The notes: generated from the sequence alone by a model not told the origin. Positions 10,712 through 27,953 are shown, counted from the first letter of the stretch. The stretch is DNA of 64,000 nucleotides from a virus (IMGVR_UViG_3300031857_000014); one strand, 5' to 3'. Program-made: numbers and translations.

Positions 10712-10728
10712 TATGACTTTTTGTAGTT

Positions 10729-12591
10729 TTAAATCGGTAAAATATCAAATAGATGTTCTTGAAGTGTTGGTTCAATTTCTCTATATATTTCAACACCATT
10801 AATGATGATTGGTACTTTTCTTTTTTCAATATTATGTAACATCCCCAATCTAGCATATTTTTTTGTCTTTACTAATATTTCATTTAACGCTAGTTCCATA
10901 TCACCTGGTGCTGGTTTGTTACAAAAGTGTCTTGCTTGAATACATTGTCCTGTTTGACAATCAATTTCACAAGTTATTCTATCAGATTTATCTTCAGTTC
11001 TTATAGATATTATGATTGATTTATCTTTATCCGCATAAGTTGCAACACAATGATGCATAAAATTACCTTCCTCAATATATTCTTCTTCTCTCTTTAATAT
11101 TACTGGATAAAAAGTTATTTCACCATAACTACAATTATCAAGTTCTATTTTTAAATCTACAGGTTTTTGAACATCATCTAACATTTGTTGATTAAACTTA
11201 TATTCGGTAACCCAACCCTTATTAATTGCTGCAACCATTTTCGCTAATTCCTGATGTTCATTATGGAAGGTAGTATAATCCGTTGCTCTCATTTTTATTT
11301 GAGGGTCATATTCTCTTATTTTTTGTAACATATTGAAATGGTCTGATAAAAGATTTACAAACTCTTCATCAATATGAAGATGGTTATCCCTATTTACAAA
11401 CTTCTTTCTACCACCAATTATTATTTTCAATATATTATCTTTTTCTTCTTCACTTATTTTATAGTTGTGATTTTTAAACTGAAAGAAATTTGCTTTGAAC
11501 ATACTTGCATTCATAATCCAAGTGTCCGGATTATTTAAACTAATAAATGCGTCAGGGTTTATATTACCAACATATTTCTGAAAATTGTCACCAAACAAAT
11601 AACACAACCTAGCAAGTGCAGGTATATTGATTTGGGTATACTTGTGTAAAAATTTATTAAGAACTTTTGATTTTATTCCATAAAAATCTAAAATAGACGT
11701 GATTAATTTTCTATCATTCTTTTTCAAATATTTCTCCGTAGGGTAATGATAAATTAATAGGTCTTTATAGTTATCTGGTGTTTTAATTTTTTTGGTTTCA
11801 ATGAAAAACTTTAGTAAATTATCAAAAATGTTTTTTTCATTTATATTAGGTACATTGAAAACATCCGATACGACCTTATAGAATATTTTGTTATCAAATA
11901 TTTTTTTTATGTCTAATTTCTCTTGTACTATCCCTCTATCTGTATAATTGGAAATATTGAAAGGAGTGTTATTCGTTTTTACCATTTGTTCTAACTCTAA
12001 AAATGAATTAACCCTAAATCTTTTTTGTTTTATATTTCTACCATCTTGAATGTTACTTATTGTAAAATTACCTGTCACCATATTCACTGTTAATGAAATA
12101 ACTCGATAACTCTTTTTAAAATAAATTTCGTTAACATCCCGCATTTTATTGTGAACATATAATTTGAATGTTACCTTATCCCCATGTCTTCTTATTGACC
12201 TTTCTATTGTTGTAAAATGAACAGACGAAAAGGGGTTACCAAAATGTCTTTTTATTTGTCTTTCTTTATCGGTTATGAAAGTAGTATCATCATAGACATG
12301 TATGTTATCGGTTGAACGGAGTTTTTTTGAACACACAAAAAGATTTATGTTTTCACCATTTGGATTATCAGAGTAAAAATATTTTGTTCTTTTTTTATTT
12401 TTGGGATAATGTAAGTAAGTGGATTTAACTTTATTAGTATTAATATTCCGTACTATTGCTGGTTGTATAAAAAAATCATCCATTCCACTGATAGGGTCAG
12501 AAATATATTCTTTTCTGTTCTCTAATGGACAGTAATTCTTAAATACGTTTATACTGGCGTAATTGATTCGTTGGGTTAGTAAATCTTCCAT
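10729..12591 (-). CDS. PcfJ-like domain protein (paralogue of 9299-10711)
   Basis: EEEYIEEGNFMHHCVATY...IISIR...TCE...Q. Confidence 0.65.
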   Translation of the reverse strand: MEDLLTQRINYASINVFKNYCPLENRKEYISDPISGMDDFFIQPAIVRNINTNKVKSTYLHYPKNKKRTKYFYSDNPNGENINLFVCSKKLRSTDNIHVYDDTTFITDKERQIKRHFGNPFSSVHFTTIERSIRRHGDKVTFKLYVHNKMRDVNEIYFKKSYRVISLTVNMVTGNFTISNIQDGRNIKQKRFRVNSFLELEQMVKTNNTPFNISNYTDRGIVQEKLDIKKIFDNKIFYKVVSDVFNVPNINEKNIFDNLLKFFIETKKIKTPDNYKDLLIYHYPTEKYLKKNDRKLITSILDFYGIKSKVLNKFLHKYTQINIPALARLCYLFGDNFQKYVGNINPDAFISLNNPDTWIMNASMFKANFFQFKNHNYKISEEEKDNILKIIIGGRKKFVNRDNHLHIDEEFVNLLSDHFNMLQKIREYDPQIKMRATDYTTFHNEHQELAKMVAAINKGWVTEYKFNQQMLDDVQKPVDLKIELDNCSYGEITFYPVILKREEEYIEEGNFMHHCVATYADKDKSIIISIRTEDKSDRITCEIDCQTGQCIQARHFCNKPAPGDMELALNEILVKTKKYARLGMLHNIEKRKVPIIINGVEIYREIEPTLQEHLFDILPI

Positions 12592-12806: not shown

Positions 12807-13709
12807 TTATTTTCTTACATTCTCATAGTTTTCAATAAACCATTTTACCGTTTCTTTTATTCCAATTTCTATTGGTGTAAATTGAAATTCGGGTAGATAT
12901 GATTTTAATTTACTATTATCTGACGGTTTTCTAAATTGTCCATCAGGTTTAGTTGAATCAAATTTTACTTTACCTTTAAAGTTAAACTCTTTAACTAATA
13001 AATCAACTAAATCTGAAATACTTATCTCTTCTGAATTAGAAAATATTATTGGTTCAGGTTCACTATAATTTTCAACAGCCCATTCTGAAAGTTCAGCAAT
13101 ATCTTTTGAATAAATAAACTCTCTTAGTGGTTTACCACTACCCCATACGACTAAATCTTCATTGTTTCTTTGTGCTAAATAAATCTTATGCATTAACATA
13201 GGTACAACATGACCATTCGTTAATGAAAAATTATCATTAGGACCATAAATGTTAGTTGGTATAACTGATGAATAATTTAGACCATATTGTTCTTTATACG
13301 CCCTGATTTGTACCTCAGACATACGTTTAGCGTGAGCATACGCGTCATTTGATGTATGAGGTGGACCTAAATGAATTTTTTTCTCAGTCAGAGGGTATTC
13401 GATATTATCAGGAAAAATACATGTTGACAAGAACGCAATTAAGTTTTTAACACCACTTTTTCTTGCTGATTCTATTACGTTTGTGTTTATCATGATATTA
13501 TCATAAAAAAATTCACCTTTCAAACTCATATTACCACCAATCCCACCAACTTTACCTGCACAATGAATTACGTGTGTAGGTTTGTAAATATCAAACATAT
13601 TTTCACATTCTTCCCTGTTAATTAGATTGTATTCCCTTCCTATCTTTATTTCAGCATTTATTGCGGAACCCACTAACCCTTTTCCACCAGTTACTAATAA
13701 TTTTCTCAT
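12807..13709 (-). CDS. fcl: GDP-L-fucose synthase / ColC-like GDP-4-keto-6-deoxy-sugar epimerase-reductase
   Basis: VTGGKGLVG, AGKVGGI, STCIFP (catalytic Cys), YAHAK, NIYGPNDNF, HVVP, WGSGKPLREF. Confidence 0.88.
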   Translation of the reverse strand: MRKLLVTGGKGLVGSAINAEIKIGREYNLINREECENMFDIYKPTHVIHCAGKVGGIGGNMSLKGEFFYDNIMINTNVIESARKSGVKNLIAFLSTCIFPDNIEYPLTEKKIHLGPPHTSNDAYAHAKRMSEVQIRAYKEQYGLNYSSVIPTNIYGPNDNFSLTNGHVVPMLMHKIYLAQRNNEDLVVWGSGKPLREFIYSKDIAELSEWAVENYSEPEPIIFSNSEEISISDLVDLLVKEFNFKGKVKFDSTKPDGQFRKPSDNSKLKSYLPEFQFTPIEIGIKETVKWFIENYENVRK

Positions 13710-13721
13710 TATTTAAATTCA

Positions 13722-14690
13722 TCAACTTAATTTATCTAACCAATAGGTTATCATTTCATCTAACATAGATTCAAAAGTATATTCCGGTTTCCAACCAGTT
13801 AAAGTTTTTAATTTAGTTGAATCTCCTTTAAGGTCGTTCAACTCCTCAGGTCTTAAGAATTTTTCATCTAAACTAACATAGTCTTCCCAGTTTAAACCTA
13901 ATTTGGAAAACACATATTCACATAAATCACGTACCGAATGAGAAATTCCTGTCGCACATACAAAATCATTAGGTTTATCGAGTTGTAATATTAACCACAT
14001 AGCCTCAACGTAGTCTTTAGCGTGACCCCAATCTCTCGTCGCATTTAAATTCCCTAGTTTTAATTCTTTACTAAGACCTAATTTTATCTTTACCGCTTCT
14101 TTACAAACTTTATTTGTCACAAAATTTGTCCCTCTCTTAGGTGATTCATGATTAAATAATATTCCATTCGAAATAAACATATTATATGAGTTCCTATAAT
14201 TTCTACTTATGTTATAACTAAAAACTTTTGCACATCCGTAAGGTGATACTGGGCACATAGGCGTTGTTTCTCTTTGAAAACCATCGTCATCAATATTATT
14301 TCCAAACATTTCCGATGAAGATGCTTGATAAATTTTTATATCAGGTTTTACAAGTTTTACCGCCTCAAGTAGATTCAATGTTCCAAGTCCTGTCACGTTT
14401 GCTGTATAAATTGGTTGGTCAAAAGATATTCTTACATGAGACTGTGCAGCTAAGTTATAAATTTCATCAGGCATCACTTTTTGTATAGTACGAATCAGAG
14501 ATGACAAATCAGTCATATCTGCGTAGTGTAAAATAATTCTATCGTATACAGAATCAAGTCTAGCCGTTTGATTTTCAGATACAGAATTTCTTTTAAGTGT
14601 ACCATGAACTTCGTATCCCTTATCAAGTAAAAACTCTGATAAGTATGAACCGTCTTGTCCATTTATACCTGTTATAATAGCTTTTTTCAT
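13722..14690 (-). CDS. gmd: GDP-mannose 4,6-dehydratase
   Basis: ITGINGQDGSYL, EIYNLAAQSHV, YQASSSEMFG, SPYGCAK, ILFNHESP, GNLNATRDWG. Confidence 0.95.
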   Translation of the reverse strand: MKKAIITGINGQDGSYLSEFLLDKGYEVHGTLKRNSVSENQTARLDSVYDRIILHYADMTDLSSLIRTIQKVMPDEIYNLAAQSHVRISFDQPIYTANVTGLGTLNLLEAVKLVKPDIKIYQASSSEMFGNNIDDDGFQRETTPMCPVSPYGCAKVFSYNISRNYRNSYNMFISNGILFNHESPKRGTNFVTNKVCKEAVKIKLGLSKELKLGNLNATRDWGHAKDYVEAMWLILQLDKPNDFVCATGISHSVRDLCEYVFSKLGLNWEDYVSLDEKFLRPEELNDLKGDSTKLKTLTGWKPEYTFESMLDEMITYWLDKLS

Positions 14691-14710
14691 ATTTTTGTTT
14701 TTTTTATTTT

Positions 14711-15871
14711 TTAAAGTGTTTTGTTAACGATATCTGAAATAAATTCAATTTCATTTTGAGTTAGTTCACTATGATTAGGTAGATATAATCCCAAATTATG
14801 AACTCTAGTTGCATTTGGTAAAATTGTTTTTCCATAACTTTCGTACCAAAATGGTTGTTCCGACATTGATCCACAAATTAGTGGTCTACATTCTACATTT
14901 TTTTCTTGTAGTTCTTTAACTAATTCCTTTATATTTTCTGTAATTATGGGATATGCGAAGTTTGAAACAAATGACTCAATTGGTGGTTTAATTTTCCAAA
15001 TACCATTTTTAATTAAACTATTATAAAGGTCAAAATTATTTTTTCTTTTTGTTACAATTTCATCAATAGTTTCCATTTGTTTCAAACCAATGAATGCTTG
15101 TAAATCTGTACTTCTAAGATTAAATCCGGGATAATAAAAAGTATATAACGCCCTGAAATCATCTACTTCGTAATTTAATCTCAGATTGTTTTTCTTATTT
15201 TCGGGTAAGTCCCTATCCCATCCATGACTTCTAATTGATAACAAAAGGTGATAAAAATCTTCATCATTTGTTGACACCATTCCACCTTCTATAGTTGAAA
15301 TGTGGTGACCAAAATAGAATGAAAATGATGACATTGTACCAAAAGTACCTAGTTTTTTTTCTTTGTATTTTGAACCAACGGATTCACAAGTGTCTTCAAG
15401 TAAATAAATGTCATTTTCATCACATAATGAAAGAATCTCATCCATGTGATTTGGTATTCCTAAAACATGAACTAATATTATACAAGAAGGGTTATGTTCA
15501 ATTATCAATTTTTTTAAGTGTTCAATGTCTAAACCTAAATTATCTTTATCACAATCACACATTATTGGTTCAAGTCCAAGTTGTATTGCGGGAGCAACCG
15601 TAGTAACCCAAGAAACAGATGGTACAATTATTTTTTTATTCTTCAACTTCTTAGATAAAATTAAAGAATATATCATCGCAAGATTAGCAGAAGAACCTGA
15701 GTTAAGATATACTGAGTATTTACAACCTAACCATTGAGACCATTTTTTTTCAAATTCAACATTTAGTTCACCTTTGGTTAATTTTGGGTTCGTTTTCAAC
15801 CAATCTATCAAATCTGATAGATGTTTTTCATTAATGGTGTCCTTGACCAAGGATATATTTTTGTAAATCAT
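14711..15871 (-). CDS. PLP-dependent DegT-family enzyme, ColD/E1-like 3-dehydratase (His at the catalytic Lys position)
   Basis: NSGSSANL, EDTCES, SFYFGHHISTIEGG, RSHGWDR, PGFNLR. Confidence 0.75.
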   Translation of the reverse strand: MIYKNISLVKDTINEKHLSDLIDWLKTNPKLTKGELNVEFEKKWSQWLGCKYSVYLNSGSSANLAMIYSLILSKKLKNKKIIVPSVSWVTTVAPAIQLGLEPIMCDCDKDNLGLDIEHLKKLIIEHNPSCIILVHVLGIPNHMDEILSLCDENDIYLLEDTCESVGSKYKEKKLGTFGTMSSFSFYFGHHISTIEGGMVSTNDEDFYHLLLSIRSHGWDRDLPENKKNNLRLNYEVDDFRALYTFYYPGFNLRSTDLQAFIGLKQMETIDEIVTKRKNNFDLYNSLIKNGIWKIKPPIESFVSNFAYPIITENIKELVKELQEKNVECRPLICGSMSEQPFWYESYGKTILPNATRVHNLGLYLPNHSELTQNEIEFISDIVNKTL

Positions 15872-16625
15872 TACTTGTTAAATCGATTAATTCTTTATAA
15901 GAAGAATATATTATTTTGGAATAGTAATTCTCCCTTTTATTTTTAAGATTATTGACGTTATCCATTAAAATATAATCATTTAATTTGAGATTATAAAGGG
16001 CATATAAATCATTTATGAAATCATATAAATTTATTAGTTCTCCACCTCCAATCAATAAATCTTGATTTGTCTCTATTGAATTATTGACAATAACCGAAGG
16101 GTGAATTAAATCCCTATAAAAATTCAAATCACCAACACTTATCTTTTTTCTATTTATGATAGAATCGAATATTTTCCCAAAAAGAAAGTTTTTATTTCTA
16201 TATGGTGTATTGAAATTAAAAGGATAAATTATAATTACATTTTTATACTCGCATTTTTTTTCATTTATGTAGTTACATAGTACTTCTTTAGATTTTATAT
16301 ATGGCGAATAGTTATAGTCATATTTCATATCGACTGATACTGCGGAATCATAATTATTCCATAATTCAGACGTAGAAAAAATTATAATATTATCACAATA
16401 ATTTTTTAGTTCGTCTATAACAAAAATTGTATAATCAAAATTAGTTTTAAGAAAAAAAGATTCATCTTCATTTAAAAATGTTCTTTGTTCTGCGAACGTA
16501 AGATAAATTCTCTTATATTTCTTGTTCTTAATAGACTTGAAATCAATATTCCTTGAAGAAATTTTTTCGTAAGAATTTGGAAAGTAATGACTGATTTGTG
16601 AAGTATTCCCTATTACTAAATTCAT
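15831..16625 (-). CDS. divergent NAD-dependent epimerase/SDR
   Basis: Degenerate Rossmann start VIGNTSQ, FSTS, YIKSK (YxxxK), YPFN. Confidence 0.55.
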   Translation of the reverse strand: MNLVIGNTSQISHYFPNSYEKISSRNIDFKSIKNKKYKRIYLTFAEQRTFLNEDESFFLKTNFDYTIFVIDELKNYCDNIIIFSTSELWNNYDSAVSVDMKYDYNYSPYIKSKEVLCNYINEKKCEYKNVIIIYPFNFNTPYRNKNFLFGKIFDSIINRKKISVGDLNFYRDLIHPSVIVNNSIETNQDLLIGGGELINLYDFINDLYALYNLKLNDYILMDNVNNLKNKRENYYSKIIYSSYKELIDLTSNDLQKYILGQGHH

Positions 16626-16627
16626 TT

Positions 16628-16990
16628 TTAATTAAAACCTTTGTAGTGCTTAACCGAATCTTCCAAGAGAGACTTTCCGGTTATTATTGAATTCTCTACC
16701 ATTCTATTTATTGCCTGAACATATTTTGGTCTTTTTACTTTAAAACATATGTCTATTTTGCGTTTTAATTCTGCGATTTCGGAGTCATCAGTCGCATCAC
16801 TTATTGCGTCCTCTAAATACCACATTCTACAATGTAGAATAGATAATTTTTCAATTACCTCACCTAAATTATCTGTTTCAATGATATCTTCAGGTAAGTC
16901 AACATTTTTATTTTTATTTAAGATATTATGTGTTGTGTTTTTAATAATATCTTCGATTTTTTCACCAAGATTCATTTTAATTAATTTCAT
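16628..16990 (-). CDS. small helical protein, DUF4254-like
   Basis: ETDNLGEVIEKLSILHCRMWYLED...IDICFKVKR. Confidence 0.45.
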   Translation of the reverse strand: MKLIKMNLGEKIEDIIKNTTHNILNKNKNVDLPEDIIETDNLGEVIEKLSILHCRMWYLEDAISDATDDSEIAELKRKIDICFKVKRPKYVQAINRMVENSIITGKSLLEDSVKHYKGFN

Positions 16991-17663
16991 ATATTTTATT
17001 CAATCCTATTGAGTTTAAATCCTCTGCATAGTTTCTAACGTAGTTATGTAAGAATATTTTTGGTTTATCCATTTTGTATGAATTTATTAAATCTTTAATT
17101 GAAGACTGCATTAAGTGTATTTCATGTGCATTTTCAAAAACAGTTAATAAATCGAAAATATTATATTTTATATTATTTTCAATAATTTTTATATTACTTG
17201 GTATTTTACTACGATTAATATGTAACCCTCTTGTTTGGTCTTCGTGTAAAAAAATGTAAGGTTCGTCATTAGGGTTTAACTCTTTATAAACTTCTAACTC
17301 TTTTTTTCTGTTTCTTGGAATATAAAATTCATTAAACCTTGACTCAAAATCTATTCCTGCGATTTTATAAAATGCCTCGTCAAATTTTATTGATGGTAAG
17401 TATTTACTTAATTCAGAAAACCCAATTTTATATAAATTATTTGTATTTAAATTATTTACTCGAATAAAGGTTTTACACTCATAATCACTGTTGACTGGAA
17501 TTAACTTAATATTTTCGTTATCAGAATACATAAAAGAAACATTTTCAATATTATGTTGATAACAAAATAAAGATACTTGATTATGTTTTTTTTGTAAAAA
17601 TCTAACCAATCCATTACAAATGATATGATCCCCTAAACCTAAATGATGATAGATATAAATCAT
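16977..17663 (-). CDS. putative glycosyltransferase (GT-B/GT9-like)
   Basis: YHHLGLGDHIICNGLVR; probable start at MIYIYHH (17663). Confidence 0.5.
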   Translation of the reverse strand: MIYIYHHLGLGDHIICNGLVRFLQKKHNQVSLFCYQHNIENVSFMYSDNENIKLIPVNSDYECKTFIRVNNLNTNNLYKIGFSELSKYLPSIKFDEAFYKIAGIDFESRFNEFYIPRNRKKELEVYKELNPNDEPYIFLHEDQTRGLHINRSKIPSNIKIIENNIKYNIFDLLTVFENAHEIHLMQSSIKDLINSYKMDKPKIFLHNYVRNYAEDLNSIGLNKIYEIN

Positions 17664-17800
17664 GAATTTATAATTATCTATAGTGTTTATTATGGATTTG
17701 TAAACCATCATCACTATAAATTTTTGAACTATTATAAATAATAGTGTTTTTATCGTATAATGTCAATAGTGTGTTTAAAAATTTATCAATAAGATTTATT

Positions 17801-18496
17801 TTACCCAACATACCTTGCGATAATCGGACTTCTTTGGTCTCCTCTTGGGTTGTCGTTTTCATCCACAGATTCACCAATAAATGCAAAATCATCAAGTTTC
17901 CTATCTCTTTTTATATTTGTCCCGTGTCCTTCGTAATTAAAATATTCATCATGTACCATAACATCACTAACAGCAAAAGGATATATAATATCTCTTAAAA
18001 AACATTGGTCTATACTTTTATCTGATTGTCTATTATTTGTGTTTAAATAAGATTCCATACTTTCGTAAAAATTTGGAAACGCTAAATTTCTAGACCCCCA
18101 CATTCCGGCGTTCATTCGCCAATTATGACCAATTGGATGATCCCGTATTATATGAAATTTTTTTCCTGAATTTATCCACTCTTGTACTCCAACCTCATCT
18201 CTTTCGCTTATTCTTGAATCACAATCACGACTTATAAAATATTCCACATTTTCATCACATATTGGTAAAAACCTCCACAATGAATTCATTAAATTCCTGT
18301 CTTGATTTGTATTTATTAATTTACAACCTAATTCGTTTAAACAATCAATAACATTTTGTGAAACAGTATTATTATAATAGACCCACATTTCCCAATCCAC
18401 AAAATGTTTTTTATGTAATTCAGCATTTTTTATACACCCATGTGTGTATATTGGATTATTTCCGTAAAGTGAAAAACTTAAAACTTTTATTTTCAT
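17801..18496 (-). CDS. putative GT-A fold glycosyltransferase
   Basis: SFSLYG, LWRFLP, ISRDCDSR (DxD), IRDHP..H, AGMWG; probable start at MKIKV (18496). Confidence 0.55.
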   Translation of the reverse strand: MKIKVLSFSLYGNNPIYTHGCIKNAELHKKHFVDWEMWVYYNNTVSQNVIDCLNELGCKLINTNQDRNLMNSLWRFLPICDENVEYFISRDCDSRISERDEVGVQEWINSGKKFHIIRDHPIGHNWRMNAGMWGSRNLAFPNFYESMESYLNTNNRQSDKSIDQCFLRDIIYPFAVSDVMVHDEYFNYEGHGTNIKRDRKLDDFAFIGESVDENDNPRGDQRSPIIARYVG

Positions 18497-18503
18497 CGTA
18501 ATA

Positions 18504-19118
18504 TTATTTATTTTCATGTATTTTATTGAAAAGTAACGCCCAGAAATATTCAAAAGACCAACCATAAAGATTTTTAGGGTTGTTGTCTTTAAAATAAGTC
18601 AAACATTTTTTATATGTATCTATATTATGAAACATTAATGTGTTCCTATCACATTTAATATACCCGTGAGGTACGATTTCAGTTATATTTGGTGGTTCAT
18701 AACTAAATAGATTATCCCATATACCTCTTGTGTCCGGATACCCATCATCTTTCATATGCGGTACATTAAAACCATTTATTGATTCAAAATTTCTATAAAA
18801 ATTGGTGTACTGTTTATATTCAGGAATATTATCACTATTAACTAAATTAACAACATCGTACTCTAACGGATACCCTTGTGAGAAAAATTCAATATCACAA
18901 TAATTATCGTGATAATTAATCATATGCATTAAGTATGTGTGAGATTCTCTACCTACATTTGATAATAAATATTCGTTATCATTTATCTTTAAACAATCAT
19001 TGTACGTTAATTTTTTATCATGATTTTTATGATAAATTACAATTTCAACATCACTGTTAATATTTTTTAACCAATCTAAATCTTCATTATAATGTGCAAC
19101 AACTAATCTTTTTTTCAT
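18504..19118 (-). CDS. DUF3431-like protein
   Basis: LVVAHYNEDLDWL, NVGRESHTYL, FFSQG.P. Confidence 0.65.
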   Translation of the reverse strand: MKKRLVVAHYNEDLDWLKNINSDVEIVIYHKNHDKKLTYNDCLKINDNEYLLSNVGRESHTYLMHMINYHDNYCDIEFFSQGYPLEYDVVNLVNSDNIPEYKQYTNFYRNFESINGFNVPHMKDDGYPDTRGIWDNLFSYEPPNITEIVPHGYIKCDRNTLMFHNIDTYKKCLTYFKDNNPKNLYGWSFEYFWALLFNKIHENK

Positions 19119-19132
19119 GTCAAATATTTTTA

Positions 19133-19978
19133 TTAAAATTTTAAATTACTATCAATTGTATCATATATGGATTCTAAAATAAAATTGTTAGACCATATTT
19201 TTTTACAAGTTGACTCCTCTAAAAAATTACCTTCAAATTCATTGTGGGTAAAAGATATAAATATTTTTTCTTTATTAAATAAATTTTCAGAGGTCTGAGT
19301 ATAACAAAAAGGTCCTGATGCTCGACCAATGATTACATCACAAAATTTTGAAATGTAACTTATGTCTAACAAATCAGGTAATTTGGATGTTAAATTCGGA
19401 TGTGTCGATATTACATTATCAAGATTAAAATTATTATTAGTGGATAAAAATAAATAATTTTTATATTTGTTTGCTAACTTTATGATGATACTACTAAAAT
19501 CAAAATTTTCAGATTGACCCGATTTTATGTTTCCGTCACATATTAAAATGGTTTTATCATATTTTATTTTATAATAATTCATTTTATCTTCAAGATGATT
19601 TATATTTGATAAGTTTTGGTAATTTACATATGGAAGATATTCTAAGGGATTTTTTAAATTAATTTCTAATTCATTGCATATATTTTTAACTAGTTTAAAA
19701 TGATTACTAAAACTACATCTTTGTTCATTTTCAACATACGACATATAATTTTGACCTATCCATGCATTTACTATTCCATTTTTAACGTAGTTAAGATTCA
19801 TGTCAAAAGTTTTTGGTATATAAGTAAATTCTAAAACATTAGGAAGGTCATTTAAAATTAAACCTAATTGACTGTGATAATATTCTATATTAAAATGTGG
19901 AGTCAGTGCATTAATTAATATTCGAGAATAAAAAATATCCCCATAATGTGCATGATTGTATATTTTTATAGTTTTCAT
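19133..19978 (-). CDS. putative glycosyltransferase (GT-B-like)
   Basis: HYGDIFYSR at the N-terminus; CDVIIGRASGP at the C-terminus. Confidence 0.45.
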   Translation of the reverse strand: MKTIKIYNHAHYGDIFYSRILINALTPHFNIEYYHSQLGLILNDLPNVLEFTYIPKTFDMNLNYVKNGIVNAWIGQNYMSYVENEQRCSFSNHFKLVKNICNELEINLKNPLEYLPYVNYQNLSNINHLEDKMNYYKIKYDKTILICDGNIKSGQSENFDFSSIIIKLANKYKNYLFLSTNNNFNLDNVISTHPNLTSKLPDLLDISYISKFCDVIIGRASGPFCYTQTSENLFNKEKIFISFTHNEFEGNFLEESTCKKIWSNNFILESIYDTIDSNLKF

Positions 19979-20940
19979 GTGATAAGTGATTCTATTTTTT
20001 TAATAAAATTGTTCAAAATCTCTTCAATTTTATTTTTATTGAAGACAGTTCCATTTAAATATGAAAAATATTTTTCTTTATCATTATCTATTTCTATTAT
20101 TTTTTCAATCATCAATTCGTCATTTTTATAATCGTGCCAATTAATAAACATATCGTTATTAAAATCATTTTTTATTAAAGGGTTACCCCAATATAATGGT
20201 ATTGTGTTAGAACAAAAAGGTTCTATTATTTTTTCTGTGGTGTAACCAATATCGACGTAATTAGAATTTTTAATGTTAGGGTAATAATTAATATCCTGAC
20301 TATTATTTTCCATACCAAAACAAAATTTATAATTTTTCTTAACGAATTCTGTTTTTTCATATGAATGGCCTGGAATGTTTTCTATGATATCTACTTTTTT
20401 ATATTTAGATAATTTTTCTAAAAATTTAACCCTAAACATATCTTGTCTATTATTTCTATGTATGTAACAACAAAACTTTCTATCAAATAAACTTTCATCA
20501 GTAATTTTTCTATCATTGAAAAAAAAATCAAAACAGGGTATTCTCCCATCTAAAATCATTTGGTAGTAGTATAATAAAAAGGATGGGAATCTAAAATTAT
20601 TTTCATTATCTATGTAATAAGACGACAATACTAAATTTGCATCTTGTGCGGATAAACCAAACCTATCATGTGATGAGTAATATTCAAAATAATTTGATTT
20701 ATTCCAAAAACCGGGTTCTTCTGTGTGAAATATTTTTACGCAATTATTAAAATTCAAGTGGTTATTATTAACCAAGGTATAGATTAGAATATCCGGATTA
20801 TCTTTAACCAAAGACACATCGTACTTTTTTTTTAATAAAAATAAAAAAATGTTATCAGTATACCAGTTAGATAAATTAGGATTCAAATATGATTGTTCAT
20901 TGTCTCCATACCCCAAAAAATTTATGTTTAATTTTTTCAC
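19975..20940 (-). CDS. GT10 alpha-1,3/4-fucosyltransferase-like
   Basis: YKFCFGMENNS...GYTTEKIIEPF...IPLYWG. Confidence 0.8.
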   Translation of the reverse strand: MKKLNINFLGYGDNEQSYLNPNLSNWYTDNIFLFLLKKKYDVSLVKDNPDILIYTLVNNNHLNFNNCVKIFHTEEPGFWNKSNYFEYYSSHDRFGLSAQDANLVLSSYYIDNENNFRFPSFLLYYYQMILDGRIPCFDFFFNDRKITDESLFDRKFCCYIHRNNRQDMFRVKFLEKLSKYKKVDIIENIPGHSYEKTEFVKKNYKFCFGMENNSQDINYYPNIKNSNYVDIGYTTEKIIEPFCSNTIPLYWGNPLIKNDFNNDMFINWHDYKNDELMIEKIIEIDNDKEKYFSYLNGTVFNKNKIEEILNNFIKKIESLIT

Positions 20941-21731
20941 AATTCTTTTAAATAATTTTTTATAATGTAGTCTTCAGCAATTAAATAATTTTTAGAAATT
21001 TCGAAATTATTTCTTACCGATTCAATTTTAAATTCATATAAGTCATTAGATAACGATTTTAAAATTGAATATAATTCCTCTATTGTATTAAACATTATAA
21101 TACCATTAGAATCAAAAAAATTATGTATAGACGGGCAACCCCAATAAATTGGTATCACCCCAGTTTGAAAACAATCAATTAATTTTTCAGTAAAATAAAA
21201 ATCTGATTTGTTATTCTCTACAACAATTTGAAACCTGTAATCCTTTAAAGATTCTATTTTGAATTCTATAGGTTTATGTGCCTTACCATATAAATCTATT
21301 ATATTTGAAAATTTATCTACTATCTGATTTCTAAATTTATGGCCACTAGTTTGGTTTTTACCGGATGAAATTATAGATACTAATTTATTTTTTTCATGAA
21401 TTTTCCTATCAGATTCATTTATCCAACATCCACCAATTGGAGTAAACCTACTACTTGATATGGATTCTAATATTTCCCTATTAAAAGTAAAAATTTTGTC
21501 AAATTTATTTGCATTATCTTTTACATATTGGTAATCATTTGTGGTAATTTCCGGAGATTCTATTAACCACATATAAATTTTTTTGTCTTTAAAATCGACA
21601 TTAGGATTTGTAGTGAATATATAATTCAAATTTAGATTCCTGTCCCATTCCATAATAGAAGATTTATTATACCAACTACTAGTATGTGTATGTGAAAACA
21701 TATTGTCAAATATGGGTAATTTTATACTCAT
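20937..21731 (-). CDS. GT10-like fucosyltransferase
   Basis: YRFQIVVEN..DFYFTEKLIDCFQTGVIPIYWGCP. Confidence 0.75.
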   Translation of the reverse strand: MSIKLPIFDNMFSHTHTSSWYNKSSIMEWDRNLNLNYIFTTNPNVDFKDKKIYMWLIESPEITTNDYQYVKDNANKFDKIFTFNREILESISSSRFTPIGGCWINESDRKIHEKNKLVSIISSGKNQTSGHKFRNQIVDKFSNIIDLYGKAHKPIEFKIESLKDYRFQIVVENNKSDFYFTEKLIDCFQTGVIPIYWGCPSIHNFFDSNGIIMFNTIEELYSILKSLSNDLYEFKIESVRNNFEISKNYLIAEDYIIKNYLKEL

Positions 21732-22336
21732 TTTTTTACATAAAAAGCGTCACCCCAAGTTATTCCGTCCCAAGTAGTTTCGACTCTCTCGAAACCATAA
21801 GTAGATAAAAATCTATCCAAATCCTCAACCATAGGGCAATTTTTATATACCTCGTCTCTATTAACTTCTGTTATTATATAATCAATAGTCTTCAAGTATT
21901 CAGAACCGCCTTTAAAAACTTCTAATTCGTATCCTTGGACATCAATGTTGATAAAATTATATTCATTTGGTAATCCAATATCATCTAACCTTTTCATCGA
22001 AACAGTTTCTTTATTATGGAACACAATGTGAGGATATTGTTTTTTGTGTAATTCTGGTTCCAGTACTGAAGACGATTGACCTCGATTTGCAGTCTCAACA
22101 AACATTTCAACTTCCCCTTCCGTATCACCTAATGCGCAATTATATAAAATTGCGTCTTCACCAACATTACTTTTAAGTATATTAAAATTAGACGATAGTG
22201 GTTCAAAATAAACAATATTTTTTACATTATTATCTTTATATAATGAATGTTCTTGACCATGATGTGCCCCAATATGAATTACACCTTTTATATCCATATT
22301 GTATTTTTTGATTAATGAATTAAAATCTAGTAACAT
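21728..22336 (-). CDS. FkbM-family methyltransferase
   Basis: IHIGAHHGQE, FEP, INIDVQGYELEVFKG. Confidence 0.85.
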   Translation of the reverse strand: MLLDFNSLIKKYNMDIKGVIHIGAHHGQEHSLYKDNNVKNIVYFEPLSSNFNILKSNVGEDAILYNCALGDTEGEVEMFVETANRGQSSSVLEPELHKKQYPHIVFHNKETVSMKRLDDIGLPNEYNFINIDVQGYELEVFKGGSEYLKTIDYIITEVNRDEVYKNCPMVEDLDRFLSTYGFERVETTWDGITWGDAFYVKK

Positions 22337-23103
22337 ATTTTTATCATTTTGTTTGTGTATATATCATCTGTTATCCATGTTCTATATGCAGGACCAAACC
22401 ATACTGAAGGTGCTATTATTTTTTTGTTTTCATTTCTGTTTAACCAACTTCCCCACCAACTAAAACTACTATTGGCGATTATATTATTTTTACACATACT
22501 TATCAAGTATAAATCGATATAATCTTCTTCTCCTTCAATAAAAATAAAGTCACTGCCGACAAACACAGATTTACACCAGTTAATGTTATCTGAAAAAATT
22601 AAAAAAGTAGTGTCACTAAAATGACTGATTGCTTTTTTATAATATTCTATAGAACAAACCGGGTGATGATTTGGTAATCTTAGGTAATCACCATGTCTAA
22701 TATTAATTGAACAAGTATTTTTATTTAAAATCTCACCATATTTTCCATTTATATATTGTACTATTTCTTCTGTTGGTTCAAATAGTTTTAAAATATATTC
22801 TTTATAGTCCTCAAAGTATTTTTCAGATTGAAAATAACCAATAAGTTTCAAATTTTCTTGATATGATATTTCTTCATAATGATGTCCGTTCTGATTAAAA
22901 ATAATATCAGTATCAAATTTATAGTTAAATAAATTTCTATAAAGATTTGGTTTATAATTGGACGCATTTCTACCTTGCAACCCTATTTTATGTCCGTCAA
23001 TGTCAAAACAAGCGACATCATTATTTCTTAACGCCAACGCAGTTGTTGTTGCAATTTGAAATAATTGATTACCTAAACCTCCTTGTAATAAACTTGTTAT
23101 CAT
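22327..23103 (-). CDS. GT11 alpha-1,2-fucosyltransferase-like
   Basis: GGLGNQLFQ, GYFQSEKYF, IRHGDY, FSDNINW, IANSSFSWWG. Confidence 0.88.
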   Translation of the reverse strand: MITSLLQGGLGNQLFQIATTTALALRNNDVACFDIDGHKIGLQGRNASNYKPNLYRNLFNYKFDTDIIFNQNGHHYEEISYQENLKLIGYFQSEKYFEDYKEYILKLFEPTEEIVQYINGKYGEILNKNTCSINIRHGDYLRLPNHHPVCSIEYYKKAISHFSDTTFLIFSDNINWCKSVFVGSDFIFIEGEEDYIDLYLISMCKNNIIANSSFSWWGSWLNRNENKKIIAPSVWFGPAYRTWITDDIYTNKMIKICY

Positions 23104-23753
23104 TATCTTAAAAAATTATAATTAACATTTTTTCTTTGTATATCTGAATAATCGTCTTTTTGCCACGCAATATGTGGAACAAAACAATAAAAATTAAGTA
23201 TTCTATGTAAATCAGCAATAAAATAATCAGCTGCAACAGATTCTTTAATAACTGATTTACCATTTTGAATTACATCGTTTATTTTCTTAGTCAAGTATTC
23301 AATCAAAATGTCAAACGAATTATTGTTTAACGCATATGCGTGAATTGCGTATGATCTATTCATTTTTACAATATTTGGTTGAGTTGTTCTTTGTAACCCA
23401 TAAACATGATTACCACCAAAATGTAATCCATACCAGTCTTCAGGTAATTGTTTTACATATTCATCAAATAAATCATTAGCGTTTTCGACAAATTCAACAT
23501 CATCTTCCAATATCAACACATTTTTAAGGTTTAAATCTTTAACCTTTTTAATTAAATTTAAATGACTAATAGAACCGGCCAATTCGTTGTCGTGTGGGTA
23601 CCCCAAATTATAATTTTCTGTGTTACCATCGATTGCTGAAAATCTTTCAACATTAAGGCCATGTTTTTCAAATTCTATTAAACATTTTTCCCACCTATCC
23701 GTTCTCCTATCTATATTGATACAATATATTTTATCAAAAAAATCGTTAATCAT
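23103..23753 (-). CDS. GT25 glycosyltransferase
   Basis: YCINIDRRTDRW, SHLNL, LILEDD, HAY. Confidence 0.8.
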   Translation of the reverse strand: MINDFFDKIYCINIDRRTDRWEKCLIEFEKHGLNVERFSAIDGNTENYNLGYPHDNELAGSISHLNLIKKVKDLNLKNVLILEDDVEFVENANDLFDEYVKQLPEDWYGLHFGGNHVYGLQRTTQPNIVKMNRSYAIHAYALNNNSFDILIEYLTKKINDVIQNGKSVIKESVAADYFIADLHRILNFYCFVPHIAWQKDDYSDIQRKNVNYNFLR

Positions 23754-23755
23754 AA

Positions 23756-24529
23756 TTAAAATAATTTTTTAACTTTTTCTGTTTTATAAAATTTATCTGT
23801 GACCCCTGCCATTAAAGCTTCACTTGGGTAAGTCCAATTTTCGTGATATTTAACTAATAAATCTATTCTATTTTTAAAAACATTGATTGATGATGAATTT
23901 TCTAATTTTCTTCTAATATTATTTCTAACATAACTTAAATGATGCATTTGAACTTCGTCTCTGTTAAAGATTTTAAATTTACCCGGATTCATTCTTCTAG
24001 TTGGGTCTACCAAAACAGGTGATGGTCTTGACATAATAAAACTATCATTATCACTTATTTTATAAATTAAGGAAACATAATAGTCTTCCGGAGGAGTAAT
24101 AACAACATCTTTGTCTTTGTAATAGGTTTTCATTTGACAAAATGATGAATCATAGTTATTTTCTAACATTACTTTTTTTAACAACTTAAATTGTTGTGGT
24201 TTGTAATATTCATCAGAGTCCATTGACATATGATGTGTACAATTATTCTTTAATGATAACGATAAACCTATATTTCTTTTTGTTATTTCATTCAAATGAC
24301 CATGACCGTCACCTTGTATTATAGGTTTATACTCAAACAATTCGTCTATCAAATTTTTTTTAATTAAATCATTTAATAAATCAATTAAATTATCATCGCA
24401 TTTATTTCCAAAATTTGAAACTTTTTGATAAACAACACTTATATAGTCAACTTCATTTCTTATTTGATTTATAGATCCTTCAAGTAATTCTTCCCCATCG
24501 AAAAGATTATAACTCACTCCTAATCTCAT
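23756..24529 (-). CDS. putative GT-A glycosyltransferase
   Basis: MDSDEYY DxD motif; island context. Confidence 0.5.
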   Translation of the reverse strand: MRLGVSYNLFDGEELLEGSINQIRNEVDYISVVYQKVSNFGNKCDDNLIDLLNDLIKKNLIDELFEYKPIIQGDGHGHLNEITKRNIGLSLSLKNNCTHHMSMDSDEYYKPQQFKLLKKVMLENNYDSSFCQMKTYYKDKDVVITPPEDYYVSLIYKISDNDSFIMSRPSPVLVDPTRRMNPGKFKIFNRDEVQMHHLSYVRNNIRRKLENSSSINVFKNRIDLLVKYHENWTYPSEALMAGVTDKFYKTEKVKKLF

Positions 24530-26031
24530 ACTCTGATTTTTTTTATTTTATTTAATATTGTTTTATTTTCAATAACATATTTTGTTGCTCTTTCCCAATC
24601 TTCTTGTTTAATTGATCCATTAACCAATCTAGTTAAACTCTCAAAATGATATGCTACCGCATTGTGTGCAAAACAATTTACTTTATTCCATAAAATAGTT
24701 TTTAAATTAAATTCAACGTCGGATAAAGAGTCTAAATAATATTCGGGAAAACACCCCATATCAAAAAATAGTTTTTTTGATATCATTTGTAATGCCGCAG
24801 TATTACCTATAGTATCAACTAAATCCATTGTAGGGTAATTGTATTCTGATTTATAACCAAGATGACCAATTCTTAACCCAAATTGATTTTGTGAATTAAT
24901 TGTACCTAATAAATCTATCCCTGCGTGTTGTATTGTATTGTCTTCAAAATATAGTCTAGCACCAATTGTTCCGCAATTTTTTTTATTTTTTAGATATAAG
25001 TTAACCATTTCGGAAACACAGTCATTAATCAATTCTATATCATTATTTGTAAACAATAATAATTCAGTGTCTTCGTCTAAGTGATTTCTTACGACATCAT
25101 TATTAATTTTTTCAAAATGATAATAGTCGTATTCAATTAATTTTATATTGTTATCTGTGCAATACTTTTTTATTTTTTCTAAGTTCGTATCATTACTACC
25201 TGTGTCTGCAACAGTTATTCTTAAATTTGGGTAATTAGATTTATTTAAAAAAGAGTTTATACATCCAGTTAATAAATCGTAATTATTAATGTTTGGAATT
25301 ATTACCTCAACTTTTGGTGTTGATTTAAAATTGAATTCTCTATTAGTATATGAAATTTTAGTTTTAATTTTTAACGGTAAGATTTTTTCTATTGTATTAT
25401 ATTTTTCAACAAATTTAATTCTATTTTTTTCCCATTCATCGTTAGTCATTCCAATTGATTTGTGCGTTAACTCAACTGAAAATGTAACCCCAACTTTAAC
25501 ACCACTTACATGGTTACCAAAACTAAAATCAATATCATAAAAATGAAAACCTTTTACGTTTTCATCAAACTTATTTTTAATTAAGTTTTTATTTACAGCA
25601 AAAAACACACCATCAACACAACAAGTTTCAATAACATCATTAAACTTAGAGGAATATTTACTAACCCACGTTTTACCGTCTTTAGAGTGTTTTACAATTC
25701 CAACCATTTTACTAAAATCTTCCCACCATTTACCAGTATCTGACATAAAAGTACTACCGGCAACGCCTAATATACCATATCCGGAAACATTAAAATCATT
25801 GATTAGTTTTTTACCCCAGTTTTGATTATTAAAAATAATATCATCATGGCAAAAAACAACAATATTGTTAGTTGACTCATTTAATCCTTTATTATATATC
25901 TCAGTTAATGATACACCATTTGGATTTTCGTACATTAAAATCTCAACCTCATTAATTCCGCAAGTTTCCCTTACGTGTTTTTTGTAAGTTTCGTCAATTT
26001 TTTTGGTGCTTATGACTATTGTAAGACTCAT
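24526..26031 (-). CDS. two-domain GT2-like glycosyltransferase
   Basis: N-domain YNKGL...FCHDD...FHFYD; C-domain VIIP...DTGS...NNDIEL...GARL. Confidence 0.75.
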   Translation of the reverse strand: MSLTIVISTKKIDETYKKHVRETCGINEVEILMYENPNGVSLTEIYNKGLNESTNNIVVFCHDDIIFNNQNWGKKLINDFNVSGYGILGVAGSTFMSDTGKWWEDFSKMVGIVKHSKDGKTWVSKYSSKFNDVIETCCVDGVFFAVNKNLIKNKFDENVKGFHFYDIDFSFGNHVSGVKVGVTFSVELTHKSIGMTNDEWEKNRIKFVEKYNTIEKILPLKIKTKISYTNREFNFKSTPKVEVIIPNINNYDLLTGCINSFLNKSNYPNLRITVADTGSNDTNLEKIKKYCTDNNIKLIEYDYYHFEKINNDVVRNHLDEDTELLLFTNNDIELINDCVSEMVNLYLKNKKNCGTIGARLYFEDNTIQHAGIDLLGTINSQNQFGLRIGHLGYKSEYNYPTMDLVDTIGNTAALQMISKKLFFDMGCFPEYYLDSLSDVEFNLKTILWNKVNCFAHNAVAYHFESLTRLVNGSIKQEDWERATKYVIENKTILNKIKKIRV

Positions 26032-26046
26032 CTATAAATTATTTTA

Positions 26047-26640
26047 TTATTTTTTTATTCCCCAAAAATATAAATCACAATGATTTGGTTCGACCTCAAA
26101 TTGATATGATGAAAAAATTTCGTCGATATTAATACAGTCACGGATATCTTGTTCTGTCACATTTTTGTAGTATTCAGAATCCCAATTCTCTCTAAAAACA
26201 TTTGGCATCGTTATCCAATTTTCAGATGAATTTCCTTGTGATGTAAAACGTTTTTCTCTATCTATTCTGTCTTGTGTTTTTGTACCATGTACGGGTCTTC
26301 CTGTTGTTGCACAGGTGAAAATAAAACATCCACCACTTTTCAACATTCTAACCGCATTCTGTATACTCTCCTTATAAAATGGGTTGTGTTCCCAACATTC
26401 ACAAGAAATTATAGTGTCAAATGTCTCATCTGGCGCATCATATTCATTTGCAGGACAAACAACATCTACACCTTTACCAGGTCCAATATCTAACCCAATG
26501 AATTCACAATTATCGAACCATGGTTTTTCATTACCATTTACATCAAAAGATCCAATATCTAAAACTTTTCTGTCTTTAAACCAATCTGGAAACGTTTCTT
26601 TTAATTTATTTAAATAATTTTTTTGTTCTTTGTGTGCCAT
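26047..26640 (-). CDS. class I SAM-dependent methyltransferase
   Basis: VLDIGSFDVNG, GLDIGPGKGVDVV, ISCECWEH. Confidence 0.75.
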   Translation of the reverse strand: MAHKEQKNYLNKLKETFPDWFKDRKVLDIGSFDVNGNEKPWFDNCEFIGLDIGPGKGVDVVCPANEYDAPDETFDTIISCECWEHNPFYKESIQNAVRMLKSGGCFIFTCATTGRPVHGTKTQDRIDREKRFTSQGNSSENWITMPNVFRENWDSEYYKNVTEQDIRDCINIDEIFSSYQFEVEPNHCDLYFWGIKK

Positions 26641-26690: not shown

Positions 26691-26888
26691 CTAAAATTTT
26701 GAACCTTTTGATGATAAGTCATCATAGTTATCTATTTTATTTCTAAATGACTCATCTTTGTTGTATAAATCTAAACACCTATTTACCAATTTTTGTAAAT
26801 TGATTGGATTTTCAACCGTTTTTAATTTAAATTTTTTATACACTTCTTCCAGTACATTAACACTTGTTAACTTTGTTTGAAATTTCAT
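26691..26888 (-). CDS. hypothetical protein
   Basis: 65 aa ORF. Confidence 0.55.
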   Translation of the reverse strand: MKFQTKLTSVNVLEEVYKKFKLKTVENPINLQKLVNRCLDLYNKDESFRNKIDNYDDLSSKGSKF

Positions 26889-26922
26889 ATTTATATATTT
26901 ATATATTGTTAAAATAAAAAGA

Positions 26923-26940
26923 ACGACACAATTGTGTCGT
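26923..26940. terminator. perfect 18 bp palindrome, probable terminator
   Basis: ACGACACAATTGTGTCGT, with a T-rich tail on the minus strand, immediately after the 26947-27123 ORF. Confidence 0.55.
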
Positions 26941-26946: not shown

Positions 26947-27123
26947 TTAAGATTTAATTTGATTTAACTTATCAACAATCGCATCAACTTGTTTTTGTTG
27001 TTCTTCAGTTAAAGTAACATTTGAAGTTTGATTAGTTTGACTTTCTGTCATTGTTACATTTACACTAGTTGGTGTAACTTGTACTGGCTGATTTTGGTTC
27101 TTTTTTTTACATCCACAACCCAT
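26947..27123 (-). CDS. 58 aa protein starting MGCGCKKK, not in the ORF track
   Basis: Hand translation MGCGCKKKNQNQPVQVTPTSVNVTMTESQTNQTSNVTLTEEQQKQVDAIVDKLNQIKS*; has an upstream TATTTATT (27138-27145) and a downstream hairpin. Confidence 0.7.
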   Translation of the reverse strand: MGCGCKKKNQNQPVQVTPTSVNVTMTESQTNQTSNVTLTEEQQKQVDAIVDKLNQIKS

Positions 27124-27209: not shown

Positions 27210-27953
27210 ATGGATAAATCATTTAAACCCGTAAAAAGTGTTTACAATACTAATTATGAGGTTATTAGGAATATAATGAATTTGTATAATATTGAACAAT
27301 TTGATTTGGATTGTACGTACTCTAAAGGTAATTTTTGGAAGAATTTACCTTCACCAAAATTTAAATCAGATATCACACCTATAAATGATTCTGTTATCTG
27401 TGCTAATTCGGAAAATCTACCATTTGATGGTGGTTCTATGTCAAGTATTATGTACGACCCTCCGTTTTTAATTGCAGGAAAAACATATAAAGACAATAAG
27501 GAAGGTAGTTCTATTATCGCTAAAAGATTTGTCTGTTATACCACTTACAATGATTTAAAAGAGAATTATTATAAATCATTAAAAGAATTATATCGTGTTT
27601 GTAAAGATGATGGTTTTGTGATATTCAAATGTCAAGATACCGTATCCGGAGGTAGAAATCATTTCACTCACGTTATGGTAATGCAAATGGCTGCTGAATT
27701 AGGATTTTACCCAAAAGATATGTTTGTGTTATTAGCTAAAATGAGAATTAATAGTTTTGGTGGTAGATGGACAAGACAAATACACGCAAGAAAATACCAT
27801 TCTTATTTTTGGGTTTTTCAAAAAACAAAACCAAAAGTGAATTATAAATTTGATAAAATAATTACCGAACAGGATTTTGTGGTGTCCCAAGATACATTTT
27901 TACCCGATCACCAACCTTCCATTCTTTTGCGACACCCGCAGGAAATTCAATAA
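27210..27953 (+). CDS. DNA amino-methyltransferase (N6A/N4C)
   Basis: DLDCTYSKG, MYDPPF catalytic motif, VIFKCQD. Confidence 0.7.
   Translation: MDKSFKPVKSVYNTNYEVIRNIMNLYNIEQFDLDCTYSKGNFWKNLPSPKFKSDITPINDSVICANSENLPFDGGSMSSIMYDPPFLIAGKTYKDNKEGSSIIAKRFVCYTTYNDLKENYYKSLKELYRVCKDDGFVIFKCQDTVSGGRNHFTHVMVMQMAAELGFYPKDMFVLLAKMRINSFGGRWTRQIHARKYHSYFWVFQKTKPKVNYKFDKIITEQDFVVSQDTFLPDHQPSILLRHPQEIQ

Follow-up and report, generated by a model that had tools for sequence, protein, structure and literature searches.

A 64,000-nucleotide stretch of viral DNA (IMGVR_UViG_3300031857_000014), referred to here as the window, holds at positions 12807-26640 an island of 17 open reading frames (ORFs) for glycan synthesis. 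We read this island as a self-contained cytoplasmic glycan-assembly cassette whose likeliest acceptors are the phage's own virion proteins, with a probability of roughly 45%. The site that the island occupies is a hypervariable glycan locus: its flanks are kept in 72-80 relatives, and its content is replaced. On our reading, the chief acceptors would be mucin-like threonine/proline repeats in proteins of the tail-fibre module, and the particles would gain a strain-specific sugar coat.

The window comes from an IMG/VR record of 100 kb with an estimated completeness of 30%. This record encodes baseplate wedge genes, as in a contractile-tail phage, together with a DnaB-like helicase and a ribonucleotide reductase. 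In IMG/VR, ~590 relatives of its gp6-like baseplate protein share 76-81% identity with it, on contigs as long as 335 kb. The phage is uncultured and comes from an abundant lineage of freshwater jumbo myophages of the lytic type, and the baseplate genes and viral relatives bear out the phage origin given in an initial annotation of the window. The nearest cultured relatives are Flavobacterium phages (26% identity). A Shine-Dalgarno-like motif occurs in just 4.5% of genes, which fits a Bacteroidota host, and the host is probably a member of this phylum.

Gene content and solubility of the island

All 17 ORFs lie on the minus strand, packed with small gaps or overlaps. The initial annotation had described sixteen co-oriented genes, of which the co-orientation stands and the count does not. 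Pfam families were assigned above the Pfam cut-offs unless called weak below, and NCBIfam was scanned as well. The island comprises 9-11 glycosyltransferase (GT) domains, two methyltransferases, a four-enzyme guanosine diphosphate (GDP)-sugar module and a DUF4254-like protein. The transferases divide into two GT2, two GT10, one GT11, one GT25, two GT9-like and two GT-A domains, with the DUF3431 protein as a possible addition. These scans recovered the enzymes named initially, namely Gmd, an Fcl/ColC-like enzyme, a pyridoxal phosphate (PLP) dehydratase, a short-chain dehydrogenase/reductase (SDR), the GT families and the methyltransferases.

Membrane segments and signal peptides are absent from all 17 proteins, the top Kyte-Doolittle mean over 19 residues being 1.42 (threshold 1.6). 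Nor does any of them belong to a Pfam family of initiating phosphoglycosyltransferases, flippases, polymerases or ABC exporters, so that the absences listed in the initial annotation are upheld on both counts. The 100-kb record holds no integrase, and no Wzx/Wzy-like multi-pass protein adjoins the island. The locus is therefore without the export and polymerase genes of a Wzx/Wzy- or ABC-dependent O-antigen or capsule locus.

Sugar-nucleotide supply

The GDP-mannose 4,6-dehydratase Gmd (13722-14690) matches Pfam GDP_Man_Dehyd at 397 bits and TIGR01472 at 404 bits, just below the cut-off of 415. Beside it, the ORF at 12807-13709 encodes an Fcl-like GDP-L-fucose synthase or ColC-like epimerase-reductase, which matches human GFUS (313 bits) and Escherichia coli Fcl (182 bits) in the PDB and NF047922 at 239 bits, below cut-off. 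The third enzyme (14711-15871) is a ColD-type GDP-4-keto-6-deoxymannose 3-dehydratase of the DegT family, with E. coli ColD as its best PDB match (2gms, 5.5e-68, 233 bits). In the alignment to 2gms, its motif GHHIST pairs with SHHIAT of ColD, and the catalytic histidine (ColD His188, located through PDB entry 3b8x, the ColD H188N mutant) is kept instead of the Schiff-base lysine, as expected for the colitose-type PLP dehydratase first proposed. Two marks of a GDP-colitose pathway are thus present, Gmd and a PLP- or pyridoxamine phosphate-dependent ColD-type enzyme with histidine in place of the Schiff-base lysine. An Fcl-family enzyme is present too, in which Fcl and ColC activity cannot be told apart by sequence, and the short SDR at 15831-16625 is an alternative reductase. 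This 264-aa nucleoside diphosphate (NDP)-sugar enzyme has a weak GDP_Man_Dehyd match and 812 homologues of ~261 aa named NDP-sugar epimerase; it is probably a 4-ketoreductase or epimerase.

From the families, we infer the following route and sugar identities. Gmd would convert host GDP-mannose to GDP-4-keto-6-deoxymannose, from which the Fcl-like enzyme would make GDP-L-fucose. The ColD-type enzyme would take off the 3-hydroxyl group of the same intermediate, and the Fcl/ColC-like enzyme, the short SDR or both would then yield a GDP-3,6-dideoxyhexose, colitose or an isomer. The product of the reductase at 12807-13709 may be fucose, colitose or both, and the presence of a short SDR besides it suggests that a second 3,6-dideoxy sugar is made.

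A scan with ColD peptide patterns recovered 30 viral loci at 51-78% identity, all with Gmd and an Fcl-like gene. The closest of these loci also hold the short SDR (57-61%) and a DUF4254-like gene (72-82%) beside a GT9-like gene. Most of the loci (24/30) come from another, unrelated phage clade, in which the island lies between exonuclease/dUTPase and PhoH and the transferases are variable as well. In the second clade (L004-L031, IMG/VR contigs up to 272 kb), the island ends with Fcl, ColD and Gmd, followed by a conserved block of proteins of unknown function and a GT2. Across 185,579 bacterial and archaeal species genomes, the ColD patterns gave one distant match only, at 36% identity.

A fixed slot with variable content

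The anchor of the slot is a DUF192 gene (27862-28221, minus strand), which is not itself a glycan enzyme. It has 142 viral relatives, in which the DNA methylase, a 65-aa ORF and the island always follow, and a search anchored on it recovered 80 relatives. The slot order is DUF192, a DNA N6/N4 methyltransferase on the opposite strand (27210-27953, plus strand; 61/80 relatives), the 65-aa ORF, here named s65 (26691-26888, minus strand; at the same position in 72-73/80 relatives), and then the island. In 72/80 relatives the 65-aa ORF is followed by same-strand genes; over the first 9 kb or less after it, these make up 87 protein clusters and are arranged in 47 gene orders. Pfam assignments for 74 cluster representatives are dominated by GT2, numerous methyltransferases, DegT enzymes, SDRs, Glf, UDP-GlcNAc 2-epimerase and UDP-glucose dehydrogenase (UDP, uridine diphosphate); O-methyltransferases are numerous among these slot contents.

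Two types of island head were found, a GT4-like pair with a small GT2 (53 loci) and a two-domain GT2 (21 loci, this phage included). The latter is the conserved head enzyme of what we call type-B islands, and comes first among the enzymes after s65 in this phage, in the near-complete relative G002 and in several others. G002 (288 kb) and a second near-complete relative, G001 (310 kb), are syntenic with positions 37235-89432 in window numbering. Both lack Gmd, ColD, Fcl and nearly all of the transferases, yet keep an island after the same anchor. The island of G001 has two GT4-like genes, several GT2, a methyltransferase and a UDP-galactopyranose mutase, and that of G002 has the two-domain GT2, several further GT2, a UDP-GlcNAc 2-epimerase, two FkbM methyltransferases and an SDR. 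Compared in full, the three phages have entirely different sugar chemistry. The swapping of slot content between relatives implies that the glycan is under diversifying selection.

Some features of the surroundings were also recorded. Compared with its kin, the segment from DUF192 to the island is inverted in this phage, and a four-gene, fibre-like cluster rich in serine and threonine (28639-37173) is inserted at the junction. Two adjacent PcfJ-like paralogues of 470 and 620 aa (9299-12591) form one cluster and lie near the slot in 60/80 relatives; a search for relatives with a PcfJ-like neighbour returned none.

Glycosyltransferases and poorly annotated proteins

The gene for the two-domain transferase (24526-26031; Glyco_tranf_2_5 plus GT2) lies beside that of a class I S-adenosylmethionine methyltransferase (26047-26640; Pfam Methyltransf_11/23). 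Pfam also identifies a GT25 enzyme of the lipopolysaccharide (LPS) beta-1,4-galactosyltransferase family (23103-23753, 57 bits), a GT11 enzyme of the alpha-1,2-fucosyl/colitosyl-transferase family (22327-23103, 79 bits), an FkbM-family methyltransferase (21728-22336, 73 bits) and two GT10 fucosyltransferase-family enzymes (20937-21731, 40 bits; 19975-20940, 42 bits, with a GTG start). Homologues of the GT11 enzyme are 36-55% identical in other phage islands.

For three of the remaining transferases, the placements come from the ESM Atlas and are leads rather than proofs. Two belong to virus-dominated GT9/DUF6165-like families. In a structure search, the first (16977-17714) reached template-modelling (TM) scores of 0.84 with DUF6165 proteins of giant viruses and of 0.68 with heptosyltransferase II, and its DUF6165 relatives occur in Nucleocytoviricota. 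The second (19133-19978), GT9-like with a GT-B fold, has homologues that adjoin a DUF4254-like gene in other phages. The third (23756-24529) is assigned a GT-A fold and falls in a cluster of 1450 members, 89% of them viral, with GT2/GT17/GT92-like neighbours.

The GT-A protein at 17801-18496 has 478 homologues of ~229 aa, in which the motif RDxDSR, a DxD motif, is invariant. Its AlphaFold2 model (predicted local distance difference test score 92) has a GT-A fold, and the best Foldseek matches are glycogenin, the Skp1 galactosyltransferase AgtA and PBCV-1 A64R, at TM ~0.5. Its 231-aa start is preferred over the longer ORF (17801-18565, 254 aa), and independent gene callers chose the same start. 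Homologues carry the JGI name "protein O-GlcNAc transferase"; this was rejected as a family assignment, the protein being a GT-A of 230 aa and not GT41. The DUF3431 protein (18504-19118, Pfam 38 bits) is possibly GT-A-like as well, and PDB sequence searches with five island proteins of unknown function, this one included, returned nothing informative.

The DUF4254-like protein (16628-16990, 120 aa) has a weak match to DUF4254, which 29 of the 37 members of its small family also match. It is co-conserved with the ColD module, at 72-82% identity in 10 other phage loci. The same identity is seen across different phage lineages (L002, L005, L012), where the gene lies beside a GT9-like gene. The fold search with its three-helix model gave no significant structural match. 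A MazG-like function was considered as a guess and is unsupported. The protein is possibly an accessory subunit of the neighbouring GT9-like transferase.

The order in which these enzymes act can be proposed from their families. The chain would probably be begun by the two-domain GT2 at the head, with a conserved acceptor as its substrate. Lengthening and branching would fall to GT25, GT11, the two GT10, the two GT9-like and the two GT-A enzymes, and the capping of sugars to the two methyltransferases. The assembled glycan would be of Lewis-like design, with fucose or colitose caps.

Transcription unit

A hairpin with a T-run lies upstream of s65 (26923-26940, minus strand), and its stem is kept by compensatory changes in 43 distinct relatives. 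Between the hairpin and s65 is the motif TATATAnnnATATA (26892-26905, minus strand), 5-15 nt before the ATG. Probably, the hairpin is an insulating terminator and the motif a promoter behind it, which would make the island its own transcription unit with s65 as its first gene. With up to one mismatch, TATATAnnnATATA has 27 copies in the window against 11.6 expected; those at 4042, 5928, 26892, 27170, 28441, 42659, 54355 and 58306 include several that are intergenic and upstream of minus-strand genes, and the motif is a candidate phage promoter class. For the host-type promoter TAnnTTTG the window shows no enrichment (94 copies against 123 expected), and a sigma-70 promoter scan gave chance-level results. 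The s65 protein is possibly a ribbon-helix-helix regulator, judged by its sequence. Between the DNA methylase and the hairpin is a further small ORF (26947-27123), whose product begins with MGCGCKKK and contains N-x-T/S-rich repeats.

Relation to known systems

Phage sugar islands of this kind are already known from cyanomyoviruses, and deposited cyanomyovirus genomes carry Gmd beside Fcl-like genes. P-SSM2 was reported in 2005 with 24 "LPS genes" (PMC1079782), and S-SCSM1 and S-SCSM2R as carrying Gmd and Fcl together with fucosyltransferases and as many as 13 transferases (PMC9602691, PMC12801897). The initial annotation considered virion glycosylation at this scale not well described for Bacteroidota phages, which overstates the novelty given P-SSM2, S-SCSM1, ACG-2014f and the core glycosyltransferases of the moraphages (PMC12619734). 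P-SSM2, S-SCSM1, S-SCSM2R and Synechococcus phage ACG-2014f are, like this phage, large lytic myoviruses with co-oriented clusters, which hold 13-24 soluble sugar-nucleotide enzymes, GT2, GT10, GT11 and GT25 transferases and methyltransferases. In ACG-2014f, the genes for Gmd (50% identical), for an enzyme resembling Fcl (37%), for a His-His enzyme of the ColD type (34%) and for GT11 (38%) stand in a row in a block that also holds a methyltransferase and further transferases. The island studied here likewise has genes for Gmd, an Fcl-like and a DegT-type enzyme, GT11 and methyltransferases in one orientation. It differs from the cyanomyovirus clusters in phage lineage and host phylum, in its additional GT9-like, DUF4254-like, DUF3431 and short-SDR genes, and in occupying a defined slot with different content in nearly every relative. 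The ColD-type enzyme is annotated in the deposited cyanophages only as an "aminotransferase", and the colitose-type reading is not made there; our search of the literature on phage and colitose found no paper describing a colitose-type phage enzyme.

With the GDP-L-colitose pathway of E. coli O55/O111 (Gmd, ColD/WbdK, ColC/WbdJ and a GT11 colitosyltransferase), the island shares Gmd, the ColD-type enzyme with histidine for lysine, a reductase of the Fcl family and GT11. In contrast to E. coli, its reductase is nearer to eukaryote-type GDP-fucose synthase than to bacterial Fcl, an extra short SDR is present, and O-antigen processing genes are absent. Helicobacter pylori has a comparable Lewis toolkit, in which a GT25 galactosyltransferase and GT10 and GT11 fucosyltransferases act on lipid-linked O-antigen. 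By analogy, the combination of GT25, GT10 and GT11 suggests fucose- or colitose-capped Gal-GlcNAc-like branches.

Giant viruses such as chlorovirus PBCV-1 and the Megavirinae, with their glycosylated fibrils, have their own Gmd and fucose synthesis, soluble multi-domain transferases and methyltransferases in clade-specific clusters. The likeness extends to the PBCV-1 A64R fold among the matches of 17801-18496 and to the DUF6165 relatives in Nucleocytoviricota; the present host is bacterial, however, and there is no orthology at the sequence level to the characterised PBCV-1 enzymes.

Virion O-glycosylation by the phage's own transferases is reported for mycobacteriophages (Freeman et al. 2023, as cited in PMC12619734). 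As in our reading of the island, the substrates of these phage transferases are structural proteins of the phage that are synthesised in the cytoplasm. Those systems have one to four transferases beside capsid or tail-tube genes, whose products carry the glycan at their C-termini, without a sugar-nucleotide pathway, whereas here 17 genes lie away from head and tail-tube genes: the flanks are DUF192 with the DNA methylase and the PcfJ-like genes, and the capsid and tube genes are outside the 100-kb record. The same paper describes "moraphages", large jumbo phages from aquatic, mostly freshwater, sources with predicted hosts in the Flavobacteriia (Bacteroidota) and four glycosyltransferase orthogroups among their widely shared genes (PMC12619734). 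This phage resembles them in being large, in its freshwater occurrence, in its probable Bacteroidota host and in carrying glycosyltransferases, and is likened to them rather than placed in their lineage. HSP70, tried as a moraphage marker, was not found in this phage or in four relatives, which is not diagnostic as only some moraphages carry one.

Candidate acceptors of the glycan

Several lines of evidence point to virion proteins as acceptors. The absence of membrane segments from every island enzyme is one. The modelled fold of 17801-18496 is nearest to cytoplasmic protein glycosylators in all three of its best matches, which would suit a protein acceptor. Three of the proteins of unknown function are in virus-dominated families, one of which is common to giant viruses, which have no LPS to modify, and the ColD subfamily also appears to be viral, with 30 close viral relatives against one distant prokaryotic match. 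A fixed slot with hypervariable content, beside which no integrase or Wzx/Wzy-like protein is found, is consistent with the same target. Virion glycosylation in mycobacteriophages is a precedent. Finally, proline-threonine (PT/TP) mucin-like repeats are found in tail-fibre-module proteins of this phage, G001 and G002. In G002, the tail-fibre module holds a 5472-aa ORF (107949-124367, L137-L138) with 47% serine plus threonine (S+T) and long PTNTPTETPT-type repeats. In the window, the proteins at 28639-37173 have 25-28% S+T, and those at 60541-63408 and 46913-48133 have PT repeats, in line with the S/T-rich and PT-rich proteins noticed at first. The 406-aa protein at 46913-48133, which combines a TPTPTP-rich stretch with a prediction of four membrane segments, is kept in G001 and G002. 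In G001, a 4057-aa S/T-rich ORF lies ~5 kb beyond the island.

Other findings weigh against virion acceptors, for which the evidence is indirect. A search of the 10 kb around the island anchor for a large S/T-rich ORF was negative in all relatives (0/80), and the fibre cluster at 28639-37173 is absent from G001 and G002. The island is probably its own transcription unit, and the putative terminator parts it from the upstream genes. For these reasons, the nearness of the fibre genes, on which the initial annotation relied, does not stand as a conserved feature. The counterpart of the module in the other phage clade is found between dUTPase and PhoH and not among structural genes, and the island is not listed for any metatranscriptome run. 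PT repeats often serve as flexible linkers and need not carry glycan, and soluble glycosyltransferases also build lipid-linked glycans.

The last point opens the way to the strongest rival, remodelling of the host envelope, which we consider somewhat unlikely. Here the soluble enzymes would work at the inner membrane face on undecaprenyl-linked intermediates, with the host supplying the initiating enzyme, flippase and ligase, and would alter LPS, capsule or a Bacteroidota-type protein O-glycan. The gains could be superinfection exclusion, less re-adsorption of progeny or decoration of secreted proteins encoded by the phage. The absence of export and initiating genes had been taken to imply a cytoplasmic end target, and this does not follow, since soluble peripheral O-antigen or O-glycan transferases could use host carriers and exporters. 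To our knowledge, the bacterial relatives of GT9, GT10, GT11, GT25 and the colitose pathway all act on LPS or O-antigen. Variation of the island alongside the variable fibre genes would fit a link to the host receptor glycan, and fits virion and envelope targets alike. Host-surface modification is also how the homologous cyanophage clusters have been read in print, without experiments (PMC1079782, PMC9602691, PMC12801897), which is a further point against a virion target. Against an envelope target, a pathway of 9-11 enzymes exceeds the one-step changes made by known seroconverting phages, and the 100 kb show no sign of lysogeny. The families are virus-dominated and not recent host acquisitions, there is no initiating transferase or flippase in the island and none adjoins it in the 100-kb record, and LPS made late would be expected to dilute only slowly into the old surface.

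It is a good deal less probable that the product is a free, capsule-like or non-covalently used poly- or oligosaccharide, or that it is attached to phage proteins outside the virion. A polymer could, for instance, be made by the synthase-like two-domain GT2, which weakly matches the chondroitin synthase K4CP, a soluble two-domain polymerase. The K4CP match is marginal (E 0.003), however, there is no export system, and the many single-addition transferases suggest a defined oligosaccharide.

DNA hypermodification, in which the transferases would glycosylate modified bases to evade restriction, is very improbable. The slot has the DNA methylase as a fixed neighbour, a thymidylate-synthase-family gene lies 2-4 kb from the slot in relatives, and diverse phage DNA glycans are on record (Pyle et al. 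2024, as cited in PMC12619734). The ThyA homologue, though, is an ordinary ThyA (258 bits) that keeps the asparagine specifying deoxyuridine monophosphate (PFNIAS) and has thymidylate synthases as its best matches; an enzyme making a hydroxymethyl pyrimidine, such as dCMP hydroxymethylase, would have aspartate there, and this is the only ThyA-family gene found. The 100-kb record covers ~30% of the genome, and two relatives at 92-93% completeness agreed. A search for Tet/JBP enzymes was empty but uninformative, as its control also matched nowhere. We know of no DNA glycosylation system resembling this combination of 9-11 transferase domains, fucosyltransferase families and sugar O-methyltransferases. 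The thymidylate synthase gene itself (L034:1570-2667 in G000, ~900 bp before the window start) has a ~45-residue insertion between its conserved halves, and its relatives are 430-442 aa long and 2-4 kb from the anchor.

An assembly artefact, in which a fragment of a host O-antigen locus was joined to a phage contig, has only the bacterial look of several families in its favour and is excluded by the recovery of the island with both junctions, that to the PcfJ-like gene included, in at least four assemblies that were made independently and differ in source (ENA, 172 kb and 70 kb; JGI, 160 kb; NCBI, 33 kb), by its presence in lake and freshwater runs of 15 studies, by the slot in 80 relatives, by GC content continuous with the flanks and by the viral enzyme families. 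The mis-assembly check called for at the outset is thereby answered, and the island is genuine. A megablast search of deposited phages with the island DNA gave no match.

Possible implications for phage surface diversity

What is new here is the phage lineage, the clear variability at a fixed slot, the colitose-type reading and the extra GT9-like, DUF4254-like, DUF3431 and short-SDR genes. The ColD-type 3,6-dideoxyhexose module is widespread in phages, and cultured cyanophages with their "aminotransferase" are among them. The sugar islands that recur in large environmental phages have gone by the name of "LPS genes" for twenty years, with no test of what they act on. With ~590 IMG/VR relatives, a fixed slot, conserved heads, swapped downstream chemistry and mucin-like fibre repeats, this lineage is a clean comparative system for that question.

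We also propose, tentatively, that each member of the lineage makes a different glycan of its own with which it coats the mucin-like Thr/Pro repeats of its tail fibres, giving rise to "phage serotypes" through a swappable cassette under diversifying selection, as in O-antigens. In this phage the coat would be a methylated, Lewis-like glycan with fucose or colitose caps, made by a cassette headed by a conserved priming transferase. If the glycans are indeed on virions, the particles would carry variable surface antigens, with a bearing on host recognition, adsorption to non-host surfaces and mucus, grazing, and the immunology of phage therapy.

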